From Escherichia phage AV117, in the sequence record OR352947.1: a stretch of DNA of 64,000 nt; one strand, 5' to 3'. The stretch's first letter is position 1, and the number at the start of each line of letters is the position of its first letter. Positions 17,624 to 38,623 of this stretch are shown here, piece by piece. The position numbers were made by a program, and so were the translations under genes. The notes under the pieces are model-generated. The model did not search any database, was not told the DNA's origin, and worked only from the letters and a program-made list of their open reading frames with translations.

Positions 17624-17848
17624 TTATACAACTCGCATGCACATATCGATACCCATATCTTTTGTATAAAAATACTCGTCGATGTACCCAGCAAACTTCC
17701 CTTTAATATAAAGGACGTCTTCGCCACAAGGGTGGTCTGCCAGAATACGAATATCCCGGCGACGTAGACGATACTTTTCCATTAAGAATTTAATTTCAGT
17801 TTCAAATTCTTCATCATTGTTAAAGGCATCTTCAATTGAATAACGCAT
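17624..17848 (-). CDS. hypothetical protein downstream of uvsY
   Basis: 74 aa ORF, ATGA-coupled to uvsY stop. Confidence 0.6.
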   Translation of the reverse strand: MRYSIEDAFNNDEEFETEIKFLMEKYRLRRRDIRILADHPCGEDVLYIKGKFAGYIDEYFYTKDMGIDMCMRVV

Positions 17849-18261
17849 TATTGCCCCGCTTCAAATTCTCGCATATCCTGGATATGTTTAAGTGCAAAAC
17901 TACGAGACTTAACTGCGTCAAGTGCACCACTACAGAACTCAAGTAAAATTCCCCAGTATTGTAAAGTAGTCTCTATTTTAAGTACATCTTTATCTGCAGC
18001 CAGGACAGTTTTCATTTCAGACTTCTCGTATCGGTCCATACTGAATTCATCACCGTCACCTCGTCCCGAGTAGTAGTCTAATCTTGCTTTTAGAGCAGTT
18101 TTCTTCTGAGTCTCTATACGCAACATTTCTTTACGAATAAATGAGTGCTTACGTAGCCATTTGCTGTATAACTTAACATTATTCGCCGTCTCATATTGCA
18201 ACTTTGTCATATCAATAGCTAAGTCTGCGTCTAACTCTTCCTGTAAATCTTCCAGCTTCAT
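17848..18261 (-). CDS. uvsY: UvsY recombination mediator
   Basis: 137 aa, exactly T4 UvsY length; MotA-box middle promoter motif upstream. Confidence 0.9.
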   Translation of the reverse strand: MKLEDLQEELDADLAIDMTKLQYETANNVKLYSKWLRKHSFIRKEMLRIETQKKTALKARLDYYSGRGDGDEFSMDRYEKSEMKTVLAADKDVLKIETTLQYWGILLEFCSGALDAVKSRSFALKHIQDMREFEAGQ

Positions 18262-18314
18262 AATGTTCTCTCTTAACTAATAATCTCCCGGCTGTATCGG
18301 AAGGACCTAAAACC

Positions 18315-18341
18315 ATTATACATAGGTTGCCTTGAAGCATT
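18315..18341 (-). promoter_or_regulatory. MotA-dependent middle promoter for uvsY
   Basis: minus-strand AATGCTTCA (MotA box) 12 nt upstream of TATAAT, about 55 nt upstream of the uvsY ATG. Confidence 0.6.
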
Positions 18342-18738
18342 ACACTCTATTGCTTGACGCTAACTGAAGTTTAATTTGTTCAATATCGTCAGGGTTGTCT
18401 ACGACCGAAAATCTAATCTCTACTATAACCGTATAGTCATCATATACTGGCGTTACACTCACAGAAAGTTTGTCGATGCGTGGCTCATAGTTACGAACAG
18501 CTGCCTGGATATTACGCTCAATCGTGTCGGCTGTAAGTGGTGTCATGTTCTCGAAAAGTTCGTCGACCAAATCACATCCAAATTCAGGGTCGAAGGGGCG
18601 TGAGCCTTTTCTAGTTGTCACTATGCCAAGAAGACTATTTTTAATAGAACGAAGTCCTACAGAACGAGCAACGTCCTTGTTCCAATCCATACGCATTTCT
18701 GGGTCGATATCTGAATAAAGTTTATTGATATTAGACAT
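18340..18738 (-). CDS. 25: baseplate wedge protein gp25
   Basis: 132 aa, T4 gp25 length, coupled to gene 26. Confidence 0.9.
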   Translation of the reverse strand: MSNINKLYSDIDPEMRMDWNKDVARSVGLRSIKNSLLGIVTTRKGSRPFDPEFGCDLVDELFENMTPLTADTIERNIQAAVRNYEPRIDKLSVSVTPVYDDYTVIVEIRFSVVDNPDDIEQIKLQLASSNRV

Positions 18739-19364
18739 TATAGTAACTCAAAGAATTCTTTGAGGCCTCGTATTGTGTGAACGTGTGACGCCCCACATTT
18801 GGGACATTTAATAGGGGTTGCCAGATAAATTGATGGCGATACTAAAAGATTTTTAATATTGATCATGTCATCTTCTGTTATAAGGCCGTAAAGGTCGTTT
18901 ATTTCTGCTTCAGTTAAATCTTCAACAGGGATGGACTCTCCATTGACAAAAACAGCCTCAATACATGAAGCAATCATTAATGCGATATTTTTATCGTCAA
19001 ATAATTTAGGTTGACGGAACTTAATTTTAATACCACTGAACGAATACCAGGGATCGGCCTGTTCATCTAATTGAGTGTGCAATAAATTCATATAGACTTG
19101 AAATGAATGCCCACAGGAACAATTCCAGGTGTGTTCTTGATTCACTTCACCTAATGAATGTGCCCACAGATTTACCAACAATAACTCGGCTTCTTGTTTA
19201 GTCAAGTTTTTAGCGTTAGAACAATTAGTGATAATATCGTTCACTGCTGATTCAATAGTACCGGTAGCCCGCGCACCTATGAGTCCTAAATATTCTTTTA
19301 AAGTAAAGGCTCTACAATTCACTTCTTTATCGCCTAAACGTACGGTAAACGTATATTTGTACAT
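18738..19364 (-). CDS. 26: baseplate hub protein gp26
   Basis: 208 aa, T4 gp26 length; divergent from gene 51. Confidence 0.85.
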   Translation of the reverse strand: MYKYTFTVRLGDKEVNCRAFTLKEYLGLIGARATGTIESAVNDIITNCSNAKNLTKQEAELLLVNLWAHSLGEVNQEHTWNCSCGHSFQVYMNLLHTQLDEQADPWYSFSGIKIKFRQPKLFDDKNIALMIASCIEAVFVNGESIPVEDLTEAEINDLYGLITEDDMINIKNLLVSPSIYLATPIKCPKCGASHVHTIRGLKEFFELL

Positions 19365-19383
19365 GTTAACTCCTTTATTGTGT

Positions 19384-19391
19384 ATTTATAA
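19384..19391 (-). promoter_or_regulatory. divergent late promoter motif for genes 26/25
   Basis: reverse complement reads TATAAATA, about 20 nt upstream of the gene 26 ATG. Confidence 0.5.
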
Positions 19392-19394
19392 ATA
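19387..19394 (+). promoter_or_regulatory. late promoter motif upstream of gene 51
   Basis: TATAAATA 18 nt before the gene 51 ATG; part of palindrome TATTTATAAATA. Confidence 0.6.
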
Positions 19395-19411
19395 ATAGAA
19401 AAGGAGTAATT

Positions 19412-20164
19412 ATGGCTAATATAATTCGTTGTAAATTACCGGATGGTGTTCATCGTTTTAAGCCGTTCACTGTGGCGGATTATAGAGACTTTTTACTAGT
19501 TAGAAATGATATCGAACATCGTTCGCCGCAAGAACAAAAAGAAATAATTGCCGATCTGATTGATGATTATTTTGGCGAGTACCCTAAAACATGGCAACCA
19601 TTTATATTCCTGCAAGTTTTTGCAGGCTCTATAGGCAAAACAAAAGTTCCCGTTATTTTCACTTGCCCTAAATGCTCTAAAGAAAAAACTGCACCATTTG
19701 AGATATATCAAAAAGAACTAGTCGAACCTGAACTTGATGTTGCTGGTATAAAAATACGTTTTTCTTTCCCTGAAAAGTTTTATGACAATAAAGCATTAAT
19801 GATAAGTGAAAACATAAAAGAAATATATTATAATGATGAATGGTACCCATGGAATGATTTGACTGAAGAGAACCAAATCCAAGTAATAGAAGCAATAGAC
19901 ATTGACTCTCTCGAGAAGGTTATTGCTTCTATGAACCCTATTAATTTGACCCTTAGATTAGGTTGTTGTGAACGTCATGTTAAAACATATACTGATATCT
20001 TAGAGGTTTTTAAATTGTTAGTTAACCCTGATGAGATTTTTACATTCTATCAGATAAACCATTCACTAGTAAAGAGTCAATACACATTGGATTCTATTAT
20101 GCAAATGATTCCTGTTGAACGTGGTATTGCTTTAACATTAGTAGAAAAGGACCATAAAAAATGA
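19412..20164 (+). CDS. 51: baseplate hub assembly catalyst gp51
   Basis: 250 aa, synteny, TATAAATA upstream. Confidence 0.85.
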
Positions 20165-21333
20165 CAGTATTCCAACGTCCAGGATATCCTAACTTAAGCG
20201 TTAAATTATATCAAGATTATTCGGCTTGGCAAGAAAATAGATACGTTGAACTCGCAGCAACAATAACAACTTTAACCATGCGAGATTCGCTATATGGAAG
20301 AAATGAAGGGATTCTTCAATTTTATGACACTAAAAACATCCACACTAAAATGGATGGTAGACAGATAGTCCAAATCTCTGTTTCAAATTCAAACACACCT
20401 CTCCAAGTTAGAACTCGAATTTACGGATGTAGGCATTATTCTGTGTCTGTGGACTCAAAAGGTGACAATATTATTGCAATTGAGCTTGGAACAATACATT
20501 CTATAGAGAACCTTAAATTTGGGCGACCATTCTTCTCAGACGCAGGAGAATCTATACATGAAATGTTAGGTGTCATATATAAAGACCGTACGTTAATTAC
20601 TCCGCCAATAAACACTATTAATGCTTATGTTCCTGATATTCCTTGGACAAGCACATTTGATGATTATTTGGCATATGTCAGAGAATTAGGACTTGCTACA
20701 GCGAGTGATAAGTTCGTATTCGTATGGCAAGATATTTTAGGCGTAAACATGATTGACTATGATACTCTTATTGGTCAGGAAGGCATTAAGATGATTGTAG
20801 GCGAGCCAAATACTGTAGGTCAGTATATTCAAGAGCTTGAGTATCCATTAGTATGGGATTTCACCTGGATGACTAAAGCTAACCAATTTACAAGAGACCC
20901 TATTAAAAACGCCACGATATTTGCTCATTCATTTTTAGATACATCTATTCCGGTTATTGTTACAGGTGATGGTGATAATGCTATTCTTGTGTCAAGATCA
21001 GGTGGATATTCCGAAATGACCTATCGTAATGGATTTGAAGAAGCAAGTCGTCTTCAGACAATGGCTCAATATGACGGATATGCTAAATGCACTACTACAG
21101 GTAATTTTAACATAACGCCTGCTACTAAAATTATATTTGTTGACCAAAAGAACCAATTCAAATCCGAATTTTACGTGGATGAAGTTATTCATGAGTTATC
21201 AAATAACAACTCACAAACTCATCTGTACATGTTTACCAACTCAATGGTGTTAGAACCTGTTAACCCAGTTAAGGTTAAAAATGAACTTAAATCTGATTCT
21301 ACCTCTAAAGAAAATAATTCTACCACAGTCTAA
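20161..21333 (+). CDS. 27: baseplate hub protein gp27
   Basis: 390 aa, T4 gp27 size and position. Confidence 0.9.
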
Positions 21334-34057: not shown

Positions 34058-34181
34058 TTTAAATTCTCAATTCGAGATAATATTTAGTAGCCACGTTCGT
34101 CTGAATTTCACCTTCTTTCGACAAGTCTCTCAGTTGTAGGCTACCGCTTAGAAGAGTGTTCTCTTCATATAGTTATTTATA

Positions 34182-34514: not shown

Positions 34515-34571
34515 CTTATTTCCTTGTTGTTTGACGATAGATTAATAATACCATACTATTCGTAAAGCATA

Positions 34572-34880
34572 TTACATAAGAAGCAAACGTTCTACCGGAG
34601 TGCCATCAACCGAAATTACTTTATCAAGGCGGAAAGAACGCCACTGACCTAACTTGGTATCGAATGCTCGAACTGATTCACGAGGTTCATAACGAACTTC
34701 TGTTGCTGGATTGTTATTTTCGTATTTGACTTCAAGTTCATCGCGCGAAGCAAACATAGTGCGTACCTCGCCGTTAGCCTTTTCAAATACAACACAATGA
34801 ACGCCTACAGACAGAATAGTTTTAATACGTTCACGAAGAACCATAGTTTCTTGTTCAGTTAAAATCATATTATTCACCAC
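34572..34880 (-). CDS. hypothetical protein (31.1 position)
   Basis: 102 aa ORF between cd and gene 31. Confidence 0.6.
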   Translation of the reverse strand: MVNNMILTEQETMVLRERIKTILSVGVHCVVFEKANGEVRTMFASRDELEVKYENNNPATEVRYEPRESVRAFDTKLGQWRSFRLDKVISVDGTPVERLLLM

Positions 34881-35451
34881 AAAAGTTTCGGATTTGTTCC
34901 CAATTCAGAGAACGAAGATTATTACGAGAGTACTGAATTACTTCAATACCAGCTTGTTTTAGAATGTCTGCCCAATTTTCAGGAGATCGGTCATATAATT
35001 CTGCATATACAACCTTTTTAATACCTGACTGTGTAATAGCTTTAGTGCAATCAGGACATGGAGAAAGTGTCGTATACAACGTAGCACCTTCAATAGAATT
35101 ACCTTTACGAGCTGCAAACAAAATTGCATTCAGTTCCGCATGGATTTCGTTATTAGCGGACCATGCACTATGAGCAGCCCGATGTTCTTTAGCCAAAACA
35201 AAATTATCGGCCCGTCCAAATGCTGTAGTGCCTTCTTTATGCCCAGCAACGATGACTGGGATTGGTTTATTCTTCAACCAACCATTTTCAGATGCATGTT
35301 CGCAACAGTTAACGCCACCTGCAGGTGAACCGTTATACCCAGTAGAAATAATGCGCCCATCTTTTTCAATGACTGCGCCAACTTTCCATGAACAACATTT
35401 TGATTCTTGAGAAATCAGATATGCAATCTGAAGGTATGTGCTAGCTTTCAT
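34870..35451 (-). CDS. cd: dCMP deaminase
   Basis: 193 aa; zinc motifs HAELNAI and PCPDC; T4 Cd length. Confidence 0.95.
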   Translation of the reverse strand: MKASTYLQIAYLISQESKCCSWKVGAVIEKDGRIISTGYNGSPAGGVNCCEHASENGWLKNKPIPVIVAGHKEGTTAFGRADNFVLAKEHRAAHSAWSANNEIHAELNAILFAARKGNSIEGATLYTTLSPCPDCTKAITQSGIKKVVYAELYDRSPENWADILKQAGIEVIQYSRNNLRSLNWEQIRNFCGE

Positions 35452-36443
35452 TATTGAACCTTATTAATATAAGTTAACAGCTCTTTAGTTTGTTCCCAAC
35501 TGATGCACGCATCGGTAACGGAAACGCCATAGGACATATTATCAGAAATTTTTTGATTTCCTTCATGTAGGAATGATTCTATCATAATTCCTTTGACCAA
35601 ATCATTAGCTGCTAAATTTTTACCAATACCAATTTGATTGCTATAATGACCATCAGCGTTTGCATGGCTACAGTCAACCATTACATAATGATTCAGACCT
35701 ACTGCCCTTGCTTTGTTAGAAGCTTCTTGAATATCAGAAGAATGATAGTTCGGGCCGTTGGTCCCGCCACGCAATACGATATGCGTATTCTGATTACCTT
35801 CAGCTTCAACAATGCCTACAGTACCATCGACGTCCATACCCATATACCGATGAGGCCAGGCGGCACTATACATCGCGTCTGTAGCTACTTTAATAGAACC
35901 ATTGGTTGCGTTCTTGAAGCCTACGCACATCGGTAGACCTGAAGCAATTTCACGATGTGTCTGACTTTCAGTCGTACGGGCGCCAATAGCAACCCATGAG
36001 AAAATACCAGAAAGATACTTAATCGTGAATGGGTCTAATACTTCAGTTGCTAATGGAAGTCCCATACGTAGAAGTTTACGACACAATGTTCGTGCAACTA
36101 TAAGACCGTGGTTCATATCAAAACTTCCGTCAAGATATGGATCATTTACAAGACCTTTCCAACCTACGGTAGTTCGAGGCTTTTCAAAATAAACGCGCAT
36201 CACTAACAGAACATTAGGAAGACGAGTTTGAAGTTCAGCCAGACGTTTGCCGTATTCAACAGCAGCAATAGGGTCATGAATTGAACAAGGACCTACAACA
36301 ATAAGTTTGCGTGGGTCTTCACCGTTCATAATCGAATTAACTTGTTCGCGATGAGAAGCCACTTGTGATGCGTAAGCTTCCGACAAAGGAATAATCTCAG
36401 CCAGTTCTTTTGGAGAAATAAGTTTTCTGATGACAGGTAACAT
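35451..36443 (-). CDS. 3-deoxy-7-phosphoheptulonate (DAHP) synthase, class I (AroG/AroF/AroH-like)
   Basis: 330 aa; blocks GPCSIHD, KPRTTVGWKGL, IGARTTESQ, DCSHANA, IESFLHEGNQ, VTDACI match class I DAHP synthase; stop overlaps cd start (TAATG). Confidence 0.88.
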   Translation of the reverse strand: MLPVIRKLISPKELAEIIPLSEAYASQVASHREQVNSIMNGEDPRKLIVVGPCSIHDPIAAVEYGKRLAELQTRLPNVLLVMRVYFEKPRTTVGWKGLVNDPYLDGSFDMNHGLIVARTLCRKLLRMGLPLATEVLDPFTIKYLSGIFSWVAIGARTTESQTHREIASGLPMCVGFKNATNGSIKVATDAMYSAAWPHRYMGMDVDGTVGIVEAEGNQNTHIVLRGGTNGPNYHSSDIQEASNKARAVGLNHYVMVDCSHANADGHYSNQIGIGKNLAANDLVKGIMIESFLHEGNQKISDNMSYGVSVTDACISWEQTKELLTYINKVQ

Positions 36444-36563
36444 AACAATCCTTAGGAGATATAAACAGATTCTGATTCAACAATACCTTTAACCGGATTA
36501 GACAGGCTAAGTTAGTAGTGCTCAGATTTATGACCATTCTCGATAGTAATTAGATAACTCTCA

Positions 36564-36800
36564 TTATAGTGTTCCATATACTCGAGTTGCTTCAACGAGA
36601 CCATCACTGCCTAATTTAAGATTAGTAATTTGGTCACCATCTTTAGGATTAACGATTATGAGAAAAGAACGAGGAGATTCTTGAATAACTCGTAATGTTG
36701 CATCCTGGAAACGTTCAGACACTTTATTGATGAGTGTTTGAGCGAATTCTTTTACTTTAATCTGAAATTCGTGTACTGTAATTGGATTTTCACTTAGCAT
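36564..36800 (-). CDS. hypothetical protein
   Basis: 78 aa ORF in the cd-pseT interval. Confidence 0.5.
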   Translation of the reverse strand: MLSENPITVHEFQIKVKEFAQTLINKVSERFQDATLRVIQESPRSFLIIVNPKDGDQITNLKLGSDGLVEATRVYGTL

Positions 36801-36857
36801 TTCGATTTCCTCATTTTGGTAGAGTTAATCATATCACAACTCTACTGTGTTGTAAAC

Positions 36858-37536: not shown

Positions 37537-37537
<1 letters not shown>
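37346..37537 (-). CDS. hypothetical protein
   Basis: 63 aa ORF coupled to the pseT start. Confidence 0.45.

Positions 37538-38623
<1,086 letters not shown>

Follow-up and report, generated by a model that had tools for sequence, protein, structure and literature searches.

Why does a lytic T4-like phage carry the entry enzyme of the shikimate pathway, and what would that enzyme do in a host with three isozymes of its own? The question is raised by a 3-deoxy-7-phosphoheptulonate (DAHP) synthase gene in Escherichia phage AV117 (record OR352947.1), of which a stretch of 64,000 nucleotides, the window, was analysed. An earlier note, made from the sequence alone, proposed that the gene encodes an AroF/AroG/AroH-type enzyme, is built into the early nucleotide-metabolism transcription unit, and may have lost feedback inhibition. 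The gene and the features around it are as follows.

34870..35451, minus strand: cd, dCMP deaminase, 193 aa (PF00383, E 1.5e-26)
35448..35454, minus strand: right copy of ATAATGA, where the DAHP synthase TAA overlaps the cd ATG; downstream cassette boundary
35451..36443, minus strand: DAHP synthase gene, type I-alpha, 330 aa (ORF, profile matches and AF2 model)
36444..36563, minus strand: spacer of 120 nt from the cd.2-like gene to the DAHP synthase gene, part of a 1113-bp cassette
36450..36455, minus strand: putative Shine-Dalgarno-like TAAGGA, read from the sequence, 6 nt from its end to the ATG
36561..36567, minus strand: left copy of ATAATGA, formed by the cd.2 stop TAA plus TGA; upstream cassette boundary
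36564..36800, minus strand: cd.2-like small gene, 78 aa, DUF7320 (PF24005, 120 bits); conserved upstream neighbour
36828..36856, minus strand: sigma-70-like site TTTACA-17-TATGAT (with TG) upstream of cd.2; weak match from a motif scan
37537..38436, minus strand: pseT, polynucleotide kinase/phosphatase (PF25109, 197.9 bits; PF13671); upstream anchor of the conserved interval

The identity of the gene product is clear. Translation bears out the 330-residue reading frame, and all four motifs named for it (GPCSIHD, DCSHANA, IESFLHEGNQ and VTDACI) are present. The protein scores 252.3 bits against PF00793 (cutoff 25.5) in a profile-HMM search, 428.5 bits against the aroFGH equivalog TIGR00034 (cutoff 173.2), 455.9 bits against PRK12755 (cutoff 343) and 606 bits against PHROG 5045. 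Its best solved relative by sequence is E. coli AroF (E 4e-105 among PDB sequences). The AF2 model (pLDDT 90.9) superposes on the N. meningitidis and E. coli DAH7PS structures with a TM of 0.94-0.96 and an rmsd of about 1.6 A. It contains the (beta/alpha)8 barrel, an N-terminal extension that is 8-9 residues shorter, and, at full length, the I-alpha-specific beta6a/beta6b hairpin (strands 198-203 and 209-214). Profiles, alignment and fold thus agree on a type I-alpha enzyme, as E. coli AroF (Tyr-sensitive; PDB 6AGL/6AGM), AroG and AroH are, with the same barrel and beta6a/b insertion. KdsA or another PEP-aldolase was considered and rejected: no KdsA occurs among the NCBIfam matches, nor is it the best match in the PDB or fold searches, and DAHP synthases make up all 21 PDB sequence matches with E <= 1e-10 as well as the 50 best fold matches.

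The active site is complete. The metal ligands C53, H260, E289 and D311 align with AroG C61, H268, E302 and D326, as expected from the Cys, His, Glu and Asp that had been picked out as catalytic, and they show no variation in the phage clade (24/24 sequences) or in the comparison set (99/99). A KPRTT motif lies at 88-92. Equivalents of AroG R92, K97, P98, R99, T100, E143, A164, R165, K186 and R234, which we take from AroG structures to bind PEP and E4P, are conserved in the whole phage clade (24/24). In total, 15 metal, PEP and E4P positions were checked; every one is intact, and none varies among the same 24 sequences; metal ligands and PEP/E4P residues are identical to those of AroF, AroG and AroH. 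The protein is best read as an active, metal-dependent enzyme. No enzyme assay, expression, transcriptomic, proteomic or mutant phenotype data for any member were found in the literature searched.

Which host isozyme the protein corresponds to is a separate matter. It is 51.1% identical to AroF, 47.4% to AroG and 44.1% to AroH, and it falls below the cutoffs of both the AroG-specific profile (NF006723, 364.5 bits; cutoff 568) and the AroH-specific one (NF009396, 386.7 bits; cutoff 463). Its sequence does not place it with any one host isozyme.

The neighbouring genes share one strand and are tightly packed with overlapping stops and starts, and a sequence scan shows no minus-strand terminator-like site between them. 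Around the DAHP synthase gene are the nucleotide-metabolism genes frd, td, nrdA/B and cd. The proposed early transcription unit therefore stands as a gene arrangement, but not beyond that. The sigma-70-like site upstream of cd.2 is a weak candidate for an early promoter that may serve cd.2, DAHP synthase and cd; the scan that found it is at chance level, with 23 promoter-like matches in the region vs 20.8 +/- 4.6 in shuffles. The search for a dedicated T4-type middle or late promoter found none, both the MotA box and the late-promoter motif being absent from the spacer, and nothing indicates a regulatory RNA in these 120 nt (folding z = 0.78, no Rfam match). No further shikimate-pathway genes occur among the 48 annotated features in a 32-kb stretch around the gene. 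The phage provides only the first of seven shikimate steps, and any extra flux relies on host enzymes whose synthesis has stopped.

The DAHP synthase stop does overlap the cd start (TAATG), and the downstream ORF is a dCMP deaminase by its PF00383 match; it is annotated as such in phage F2. The suggested coupling to dCMP deaminase holds as adjacency but not as a functional link. One or two small ORFs lie between DAHP synthase and cd in Winklervirus, Kagamiyamavirus and Bragavirus, so the overlap is not a conserved functional link and conserved coupling to cd is rejected.

The gene itself is already known, contrary to the novelty implied at first. Of 212 phage records, most carry an annotation for it, and PHROG 5045 is categorised as 'moron, auxiliary metabolic gene and host takeover'. 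That family and the GenBank entries of F2, JS09, Shf125875, phiC120 (ORF64), Marfa, CHI14, PM2 and KLB31 represent the same gene. The AV117 copy is 100% identical to those of phages F2 and NBG1, and a gene at least 99% identical is present in about 140 E. coli and Shigella phage genomes, mostly correctly annotated. Homologues are found in T4-like phages of Klebsiella, Enterobacter, Edwardsiella, Serratia, Erwinia, Proteus and Providencia. A match in an Acinetobacter 'phage' (MD-2021a) is not counted: it has cobS and ribazole-phosphatase neighbours and a cellular pocket, and looks like bacterial DNA. Two genome papers mention the gene in passing (PMC8022965, PMC11845039), giving at most a domain annotation or a generic auxiliary-metabolic-gene hypothesis. 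In the latter, the Kanagawavirus homologue is read as an auxiliary metabolic gene; the nucleotide and NAD genes which that paper treats alongside it serve other pathways than DAHP synthase. The new part is a signature of seven columns, at least five of them in or beside the inhibitor pocket, described below.

The gene occupies the same cd.2-cd position in the six genera inspected (Mosigvirus, Kanagawavirus, Marfavirus, Winklervirus, Kagamiyamavirus and Bragavirus). In T4, the interval from pseT to cd holds five small ORFs but no DAHP synthase, as had been noted. The gene is cleanly absent from RB69 and mar008P4, where a single ATAATGA joins cd.2 to cd (the cd.2-like gene is annotated as Cd.2 in mar008P4, RB69 and PEi26). 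What is missing from RB69-type genomes is the 1113-bp cassette, whose boundaries were taken from blastn blocks and junctions against mar008P4. The cassette is dispensable, and since these two phages do without it, any benefit must be conditional. There is also no support for a link to arabinosyl-hmC DNA modification in Mosigvirus, which is suggested by DAHP being an arabino-heptulosonate: RB69, where the gene is absent, is the phage in which arabinosylation was discovered, and the RB69 paper does not mention it.

The gene is not a recent arrival. Its GC content is 0.410, and its GC3 of 0.293 nearly equals the average of the phage genes (0.292), E. coli aroF/G/H having values of 0.50-0.57; its codon usage (z = -0.33) ranks 21 of 68. 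The phage-like codon usage reported earlier is thus confirmed. All bootstraps of a neighbour-joining (NJ) tree (200/200) recover the phage clade as monophyletic. Divergence reaches 0.73 inside the clade, vs 0.75 to the nearest cellular sequences, and the closest cellular protein shares at most 55% identity. Recent host capture and assembly contamination are rejected on the phage-like GC3 and codons, the low cellular identity and the monophyly. An enterobacterial AroF donor is suggested by the NJ topology, but the AroF-sister grouping has only 26/200 bootstraps and the proposal is not adopted. The gene belongs to an old phage lineage of DAHP synthases that probably descends from one acquisition. 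By its codons, monophyly, synteny in six genera and membership of PHROG 5045, it qualifies as a stably resident phage auxiliary metabolic gene.

The protein differs from the host enzymes at its ends, in internal deletions and in the inhibitor pocket, among other positions. The N-terminus had been put at about 20 residues shorter than that of AroG; alignment with authentic K-12 AroG, AroF and AroH gives 8-9, with the phage M1 opposite AroG R9 and AroF H10. The remainder of the 20-residue length difference from AroG comprises a 1-residue deletion and a 1-residue insertion (net 0), internal deletions of 5 and 2 residues near the C-terminus (5 and 2-3 against AroF, AroG and AroH taken together), and a C-terminal tail that is 5 residues shorter. 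Equivalents of AroG residues 1-8, which include D6/D7, are missing in 24/24 phage sequences, and 46-50 residues precede GPCS in phage proteins vs 56-93 in cellular ones. N-terminal deletions of Aro3 and Aro4 were reportedly studied by Helmstaedt et al. (PNAS, 2005), and are not counted as evidence here. Deletion of Ile11 in AroF leads to feedback resistance (PMC10729320).

The pocket changes emerge from an unbiased scan of the alignment. Across 330 columns, it picks out only 7 at which the phage and the cellular enzymes are fixed for different residues: 150, 151, 155, 156, 180, 209 and 223 in AroG numbering. At least five of these are in or beside the amino-acid inhibitor pocket. The pocket replacements are P150I, Q151K, D155G, S180P, F209Y and T223A, together with L156I (phage residues I141, K142, G146, P171, Y200, A214 and I147). 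At position 151, 24/25 phage sequences have K and 98/98 cellular sequences have Q; at 180, the counts are 25/25 for P and 97/98 for S; at 150, 24/25 for I and 91/98 for P; at 209, 25/25 for Y and 97/98 for F. The canonical inhibitor pocket (AroG P150, Q151, S180, F209 and D6/D7) is not found in the phage clade. The new lining is itself conserved: 18 pocket sites average 0.913 within the clade, vs 0.744 for the protein as a whole (P about 0.0015 against random 18-column sets). D146, G178 and L179 are kept, and the position which discriminates between Tyr and Phe (AroG S211, AroF G212, Aro4 G226) is Gly in the phage protein. The enzyme of Aeromonas phage HJ05, which was acquired independently, carries Q151H, S180P and F209V, a hint that re-lining of the pocket may be recurrent in phage-borne copies. 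We take this pocket to be located at the AroG tight-dimer interface.

The roles of five of the replaced residues (P150I, Q151K, D155G, S180P and F209Y) are documented. AroG Q151 and S180 (AroF Q152 and S181) contact the bound inhibitor; D155 forms a salt bridge, and the counterpart of this bridge in the C. glutamicum enzyme keeps that part of the pocket stable; P150L, S180F and F209A/S each make the enzyme feedback-resistant (PMC9529685). ARO4-Q166K is a feedback-resistant yeast allele (PMC7513737), and Q166 of yeast ARO4 aligns with AroG Q151 and phage K142, so the phage clade has the identical Q-to-K change. The clade is thus naturally altered at the sites of the feedback-resistant AroG, AroF delta-Ile11 and ARO4 alleles. 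Its other changes are not the exact engineered ones: at 180 the phage has P where the mutant has F, at 150 I in place of L, and at 209 Y in place of A or S. Unlike the laboratory single mutants, the phage changes arose naturally, are fixed and occur together in a single protein, where their effect is probably a loss of inhibition.

As the feedback-inhibition pocket is consistently rebuilt, the phage enzyme is probably insensitive to the host off-switch. The possibility of deregulation raised in the earlier note is therefore supported, although its main ground is now the clade-wide exchange of inhibitor-contact residues, the truncation being only 8-9 residues. The explanation that we favour, and consider reasonably probable, is a catalytically competent DAHP synthase, acquired once, which is not inhibited by Tyr, Phe or Trp and opens the entry to the shikimate pathway during infection. 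A T4-like phage lineage would have made a single ancient acquisition and kept the gene between cd.2 and cd, in the orientation of pseT and cd. The enzyme would convert PEP and erythrose-4-phosphate to DAHP, the first committed shikimate step. With the catalytic barrel unaltered, the pocket for switching off by Tyr, Phe and Trp would have been re-lined, and the N-terminal residues that close it from the neighbouring subunit lost. The enzyme would in this way escape inhibition by aromatic amino acids, and carbon entry to the shikimate pathway in the infected cell would be uncoupled from host feedback control. Downstream host enzymes would take DAHP on to chorismate, aromatic amino acids and chorismate-derived cofactors.

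A pocket without function should drift, and this one is conserved, so it may accommodate some other ligand, or contacts between subunits may keep it unchanged. The former idea would make the enzyme still allosteric, responding through Lys142, Tyr200 and Pro171 to some other small-molecule effector, for example a phage-relevant metabolite. The near invariance of the replaced residues (24-25/25) despite clade divergence of up to 0.73 speaks for it, as do the conservation of the 18 sites above random columns and the full-length regulatory beta6a/beta6b hairpin; as context, the neighbouring dCMP deaminase is annotated as allosteric in RB69, where HM-dCTP and dCTP activate it. However, the results point to no candidate ligand, packing at the dimer interface could by itself explain the conservation, and loss of the N-terminal lid residues takes away part of any binding site. 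Such re-tuning is unlikely in our judgement. With it goes the idea, equally doubtful, that the pocket was converted and not merely broken, and that a new allosteric use of its conserved Lys, Pro, Tyr and Ile lining places shikimate entry under phage control.

Two further readings were weighed. The enzyme could be an extra AroF-like isozyme, still sensitive to Tyr and with regulation essentially unchanged, which maintains DAHP synthase levels after host transcription is shut off. AroF is indeed the nearest host isozyme, the Gly at the Tyr/Phe-discriminating position is that of Tyr-sensitive enzymes, and D146, G178, L179 and the hairpin are retained. But Q151 and S180, the two side chains through which AroG and AroF touch the inhibitor, are both replaced, and Q-to-K alone confers feedback resistance on yeast ARO4; P150 and D155 are replaced as well, the N-terminal segment is absent, and the changed positions are the very columns which divide phage from cellular enzymes. 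Retained Tyr sensitivity is accordingly judged improbable. It is very improbable that an unregulated enzyme serves as a sink which drains PEP and/or erythrose-4-phosphate, with DAHP as a by-product, and which either redirects central carbon and pentose-phosphate flux or starves host PEP-dependent processes. A sink requires lack of regulation, the first pathway enzyme is carried alone, and the gene sits among frd, td, nrdA/B and cd. Nevertheless, the argument is conjectural throughout, position in a T4-type genome is a poor guide to function, and the full product-forming chemistry has been kept where cheaper sinks would be possible.

Other phage auxiliary metabolic genes likewise place one host-derived enzyme of a pathway control point in a lytic phage, and their presumed role is to sustain a host pathway while infection proceeds. 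Phage DAHP synthase is marked out among them by the apparent loss of its allosteric off-switch. If Tyr, Phe and Trp do not affect it, nature has provided a feedback-resistant DAHP synthase of long evolution; metabolic engineers obtain such resistance by mutagenesis, and among their substitutions is one that the phage shares. In that case it would also illustrate clearly how a phage can override a host pathway: an allosteric off-switch is taken away, and no extra enzyme is needed. Natural relatives with the cassette (F2/JS09-type) and without it (RB69, mar008P4) make the question directly testable.

The gene beside cd encodes a type I-alpha DAHP synthase. A Shine-Dalgarno-like TAAGGA, read from the sequence, ends 6 nt before its start codon.

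35451..36443, minus strand: DAHP synthase ORF, ATG start, 330 aa

All four motif strings quoted in the earlier note occur in the translation, and profile HMMs bear out its class I assignment: TIGR00034 (the aroFGH equivalog) scores 428.5 bits (cut-off 173), PRK12755 455.9 bits (cut-off 343) and Pfam DAHP_synth_1 252 bits. The AroG- and AroH-specific NCBIfam models fall under their cut-offs (364.5 vs 568 and 386.7 vs 463). KdsA is ruled out, with zero KdsA model matches and a DAHP synthase as the best solved relative; E. coli AroF is nearest by sequence (6AGL/6AGM, E 4e-105), with N. meningitidis DAH7PS and AroG next. The AlphaFold2 model, built from an alignment of 41 sequences, is confident (pLDDT 90.9, pTM 0.91) and superimposes on solved type I-alpha enzymes with TM 0.94-0.96 and rmsd about 1.6 A.

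Residues were mapped by aligning authentic K-12 aroG, aroF and aroH with 119 database homologues. The metal ligands are present as claimed: C53, H260, E289 and D311 correspond to AroG C61, H268, E302 and D326 and are invariant in the clade of T4-like phage homologues, as are all eleven PEP/E4P-site positions checked, including KPRTT. With these intact, the protein would have all that catalysis needs; neither loss of catalytic residues nor a best match to KdsA was found. The N-terminus had been described as about 20 residues shorter than that of AroG. The real gap is 8 residues relative to AroG and 9 relative to AroF, phage M1 lying opposite AroG R9 and AroF H10; the rest of the length loss relative to AroG is at the other end, where 5 and 2-3 residues are deleted internally close to the C-terminus and the tail is shorter.

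Feedback inhibitors contact AroG Q151 and S180 (AroF Q152 and S181), and feedback resistance results from P150L, S180F, F209A/S, L175D, L179A, V221A and D146N; the C. glutamicum counterpart of the D155 salt bridge stabilises that pocket region (PMC9529685). Deletion of AroF Ile11 also gives feedback resistance (PMC10729320). Several of these positions are substituted throughout the phage clade.

Inhibitor-pocket residues (AroG numbering) in phage and cellular sequences
Q151: phage clade K in 24/25 (R in the remaining one); cellular Q in 98/98
S180: phage clade P in 25/25; cellular S in 97/98
P150: phage clade I in 24/25; cellular P in 91/98
F209: phage clade Y in 25/25; cellular F in 97/98
D155: phage clade G in 24/25; cellular D in 95/98

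Counterparts of AroG residues 1-8, D6 and D7 included, are missing in all 24 of 24 phage sequences. The pocket positions were not picked to suit the idea, since a blind scan for fixed phage-cellular differences returned only 7 of 330 columns: AroG 150, 151, 155, 156, 180, 209 and 223. By alignment, phage K142 and AroG Q151 correspond to yeast Aro4 Q166 (Aro4 sequence verified against PDB 1HFB); the phage clade thus bears the same Q-to-K substitution as ARO4-Q166K, a standard feedback-resistant allele (PMC7513737). The best-supported reading is that the phage protein is probably an active DAHP synthase no longer switched off by aromatic amino acids. During infection, entry to the shikimate pathway would then be released from host feedback. 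The added value here is a specific, testable prediction, natural feedback resistance. Behind it stand the seven clade-defining substitutions, which cluster on the inhibitor pocket, and phages with and without the cassette exist in nature for comparison.

The pocket is undecayed: it has been rebuilt and then held fixed. The AlphaFold2 model keeps the beta6a/b hairpin, and the 18 pocket sites are more conserved in the phage clade than random 18-column sets (0.913 vs 0.744, P about 0.0015). Such fixity fits a constrained subunit interface and also fits the binding of something else; an allosteric site re-tuned to another ligand is accordingly conceivable, if rather unlikely. At the position which discriminates Tyr from Phe (AroG S211, AroF G212) the phage protein has Gly, like Tyr-type enzymes; an ordinary extra isozyme, still Tyr-sensitive, is nevertheless improbable given the substituted pocket. 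That the enzyme acts as a PEP/E4P sink is very improbable. What the phage might gain is a supply of aromatic amino acids for its proteins, or of cofactors derived from chorismate, folate among them. The phage's frd and td products, encoded about 10 kb upstream, use folate; a link to them is only an idea. A link to the arabinosyl-hmC DNA modification of Mosigvirus was dropped because RB69, its discovery phage, lacks the gene.

The gene is not new. Novelty fails on its wide and mostly annotated deposition: with megablast the gene turns up in 145 phage records, in 137 of these at 99% identity or more (phage F2 at 100%), and tblastn finds homologues in 212. Usual annotations are 'phospho-2-dehydro-3-deoxyheptonate aldolase', 'DAHP synthase' and 'AroG/aroF', and the gene is PHROG 5045 (606 bits), classed as 'moron, auxiliary metabolic gene and host takeover'. 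A full-text literature search returned passing mentions only, namely a domain note on ORF 64 of phiC120 (PMC8022965) and a generic AMG hypothesis for the homologue in Klebsiella phage KLB31, a Kanagawavirus (PMC11845039); enzymology, expression data or a mutant were not found. The finding is thus real and rightly identified, yet already known through annotation, and of modest interest.

Identity falls in steps, from about 99% in Escherichia and Shigella phages to 77% in Enterobacter and Edwardsiella phages, 67-69% in Klebsiella, Serratia and Erwinia phages and EcS1, and 56-58% in Proteus and Providencia phages and Shigella SdyM_006. Inspected carriers are T4-like genomes of 160-177 kb. In a search of 5.8 billion proteins, phage proteins (319-343 aa) rank first and cellular enzymes (341-388 aa) begin at 55% identity or less. 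The phage clade (25 sequences) is monophyletic in 200/200 NJ bootstraps, and divergence within it reaches 0.73, close to the 0.75 separating it from the nearest cellular sequences. Enterobacterial AroF, a candidate donor, adjoins it in the tree, a split backed by only 26/200 bootstraps. GC is 0.410, GC3 (0.293) is close to the phage gene mean (0.292) and the codon-usage z is -0.33, unlike E. coli aroF/G/H (GC3 0.50-0.57), which bears out the view that this is not a recent raw acquisition.

In T4 the pseT-cd interval holds five small ORFs and no DAHP synthase, as had been noted. The order pseT ... cd.3 - cd.2 - DAHP synthase - (0-2 small ORFs) - cd - 31.x - 31 - rIII was read in the window's lineage, Kanagawavirus (Entb_45, PEi26), Marfavirus (Marfa), Winklervirus (CHI14), Kagamiyamavirus (EcS1) and Bragavirus (PM2). 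In the window the last A of the TAA stop is also the first base of the following ATG; the gene that starts there is indeed dCMP deaminase (PF00383, E 1.5e-26). The proposed coupling holds for this TAATG overlap and does not extend across genera: because 0-2 small ORFs intervene, the overlap is specific to some of them.

The gene is also polymorphic within Mosigvirus. RB69 and vB_Eco_mar008P4 have cd.2 joined straight to cd; relative to mar008P4 (flanks 94-97% identical) the window has 1113 bp extra, a 120-nt spacer plus the 993-nt gene.

36567-36561 and 35454-35448, minus strand: ATAATGA copies bounding this cassette, from the comparison with mar008P4

Cassette-minus genomes have a single copy of this 7-nt stop/start overlap motif. 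With the same motif on both sides, excision or insertion restores a perfect TAATG junction, as in RB69 and mar008P4. Since synteny holds across genera, we infer that the more parsimonious history is a secondary loss in RB69-type genomes. Flanks at 90% identity or more occur in 154 records, and in 139 of these the match extends over 80% or more of a 5-kb query spanning the gene (two of those below 80% were inspected); together with the cassette-minus genomes, this makes the gene common but dispensable. Phage F2 (MN864145 / NC_054913), the best-matching record, is filed by NCBI taxonomy under Tequatrovirus; it nevertheless shares 94-97% identity with Mosigvirus mar008P4 across pseT-cd and has RB69-type ORFs there, so its genus assignment looks doubtful.

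From pseT to cd the genes lie on one strand, mostly with overlaps of 1-20 nt, and no terminator-like sites occur on the coding strand between them. Co-transcription of the DAHP synthase gene with the pseT-cd block is therefore plausible. An early transcription unit had been proposed; the shared strand, tight packing and terminator-free run bear it out as an arrangement only, early expression being a prediction. Neither a MotA box nor a TATAAATA motif was found directly upstream of the gene, and promoter-like matches in the region are no more frequent than expected by chance (23 vs 20.8 +/- 4.6). Clear examples of both motifs stand before gene 31 and rIII, consistent with T4-like regulation of these two genes.

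36856-36828: sigma-70-like site TTTACA-17-TATGAT, upstream of cd.2
34572-34880, minus strand: 31.1-like ORF after cd, 102 aa, GTG start, WYL_2 PF10902 (E 2.3e-9)
34563-34571, minus strand: good T4-type middle promoter just upstream of gene 31 (MotA box TATGCTTTA, 12 nt, TATTAT)
34174-34181, minus strand: late-promoter TATAAATA between gene 31 and rIII

RNA folding of the 120-nt spacer is unremarkable (z = 0.78), and Rfam gives zero matches in the window. Phage F2 annotates a 41-aa ORF, 'HX01_0229', over the cd.2 end and the spacer (window 36452-36577, minus strand); the window's ORF list instead has a 46-aa ORF (36397..36537) running into the DAHP synthase gene. Neither is supported as a gene. 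The start of the 31.1-like ORF overlaps the cd end by 11 nt, and its WYL_2 match is to an Sm-like SH3 beta-barrel fold.

Two other phage-filed DAHP synthases were seen. Aeromonas phage HJ05 (OQ594355.1, 2899-4062 of the retrieved segment), a 79-kb genome unrelated to T4, has an independently acquired one (38% identity, 387 aa, annotated 'hypothetical') with intact catalytic residues and a non-canonical pocket (Q151H, S180P, F209V, D155P); this may mean that the amino-acid site was lost by convergence, or that the enzyme descends from a subfamily that was unregulated. The other, on a 13-kb contig in a phage collection ('Acinetobacter phage MD-2021a', CAKLQH020000056.1), retains the cellular pocket and lies beside cobS, a histidine-phosphatase-family gene and an alpha-ribazole-phosphatase gene; from these neighbours and that pocket it looks like misfiled bacterial DNA and was set aside as a phage example.

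Elsewhere in the window, the gene for the large subunit of ribonucleotide reductase is seemingly split (~46361-43202, minus strand, mapped from F2 86718-89877, or 17640-20799 of an F2 segment). A 'NrdA-like large subunit' CDS of 1425 nt is followed by a homing endonuclease of 711 nt and a 'ribonucleotide reductase' CDS of 990 nt, with an 11-nt overlap between these latter two.
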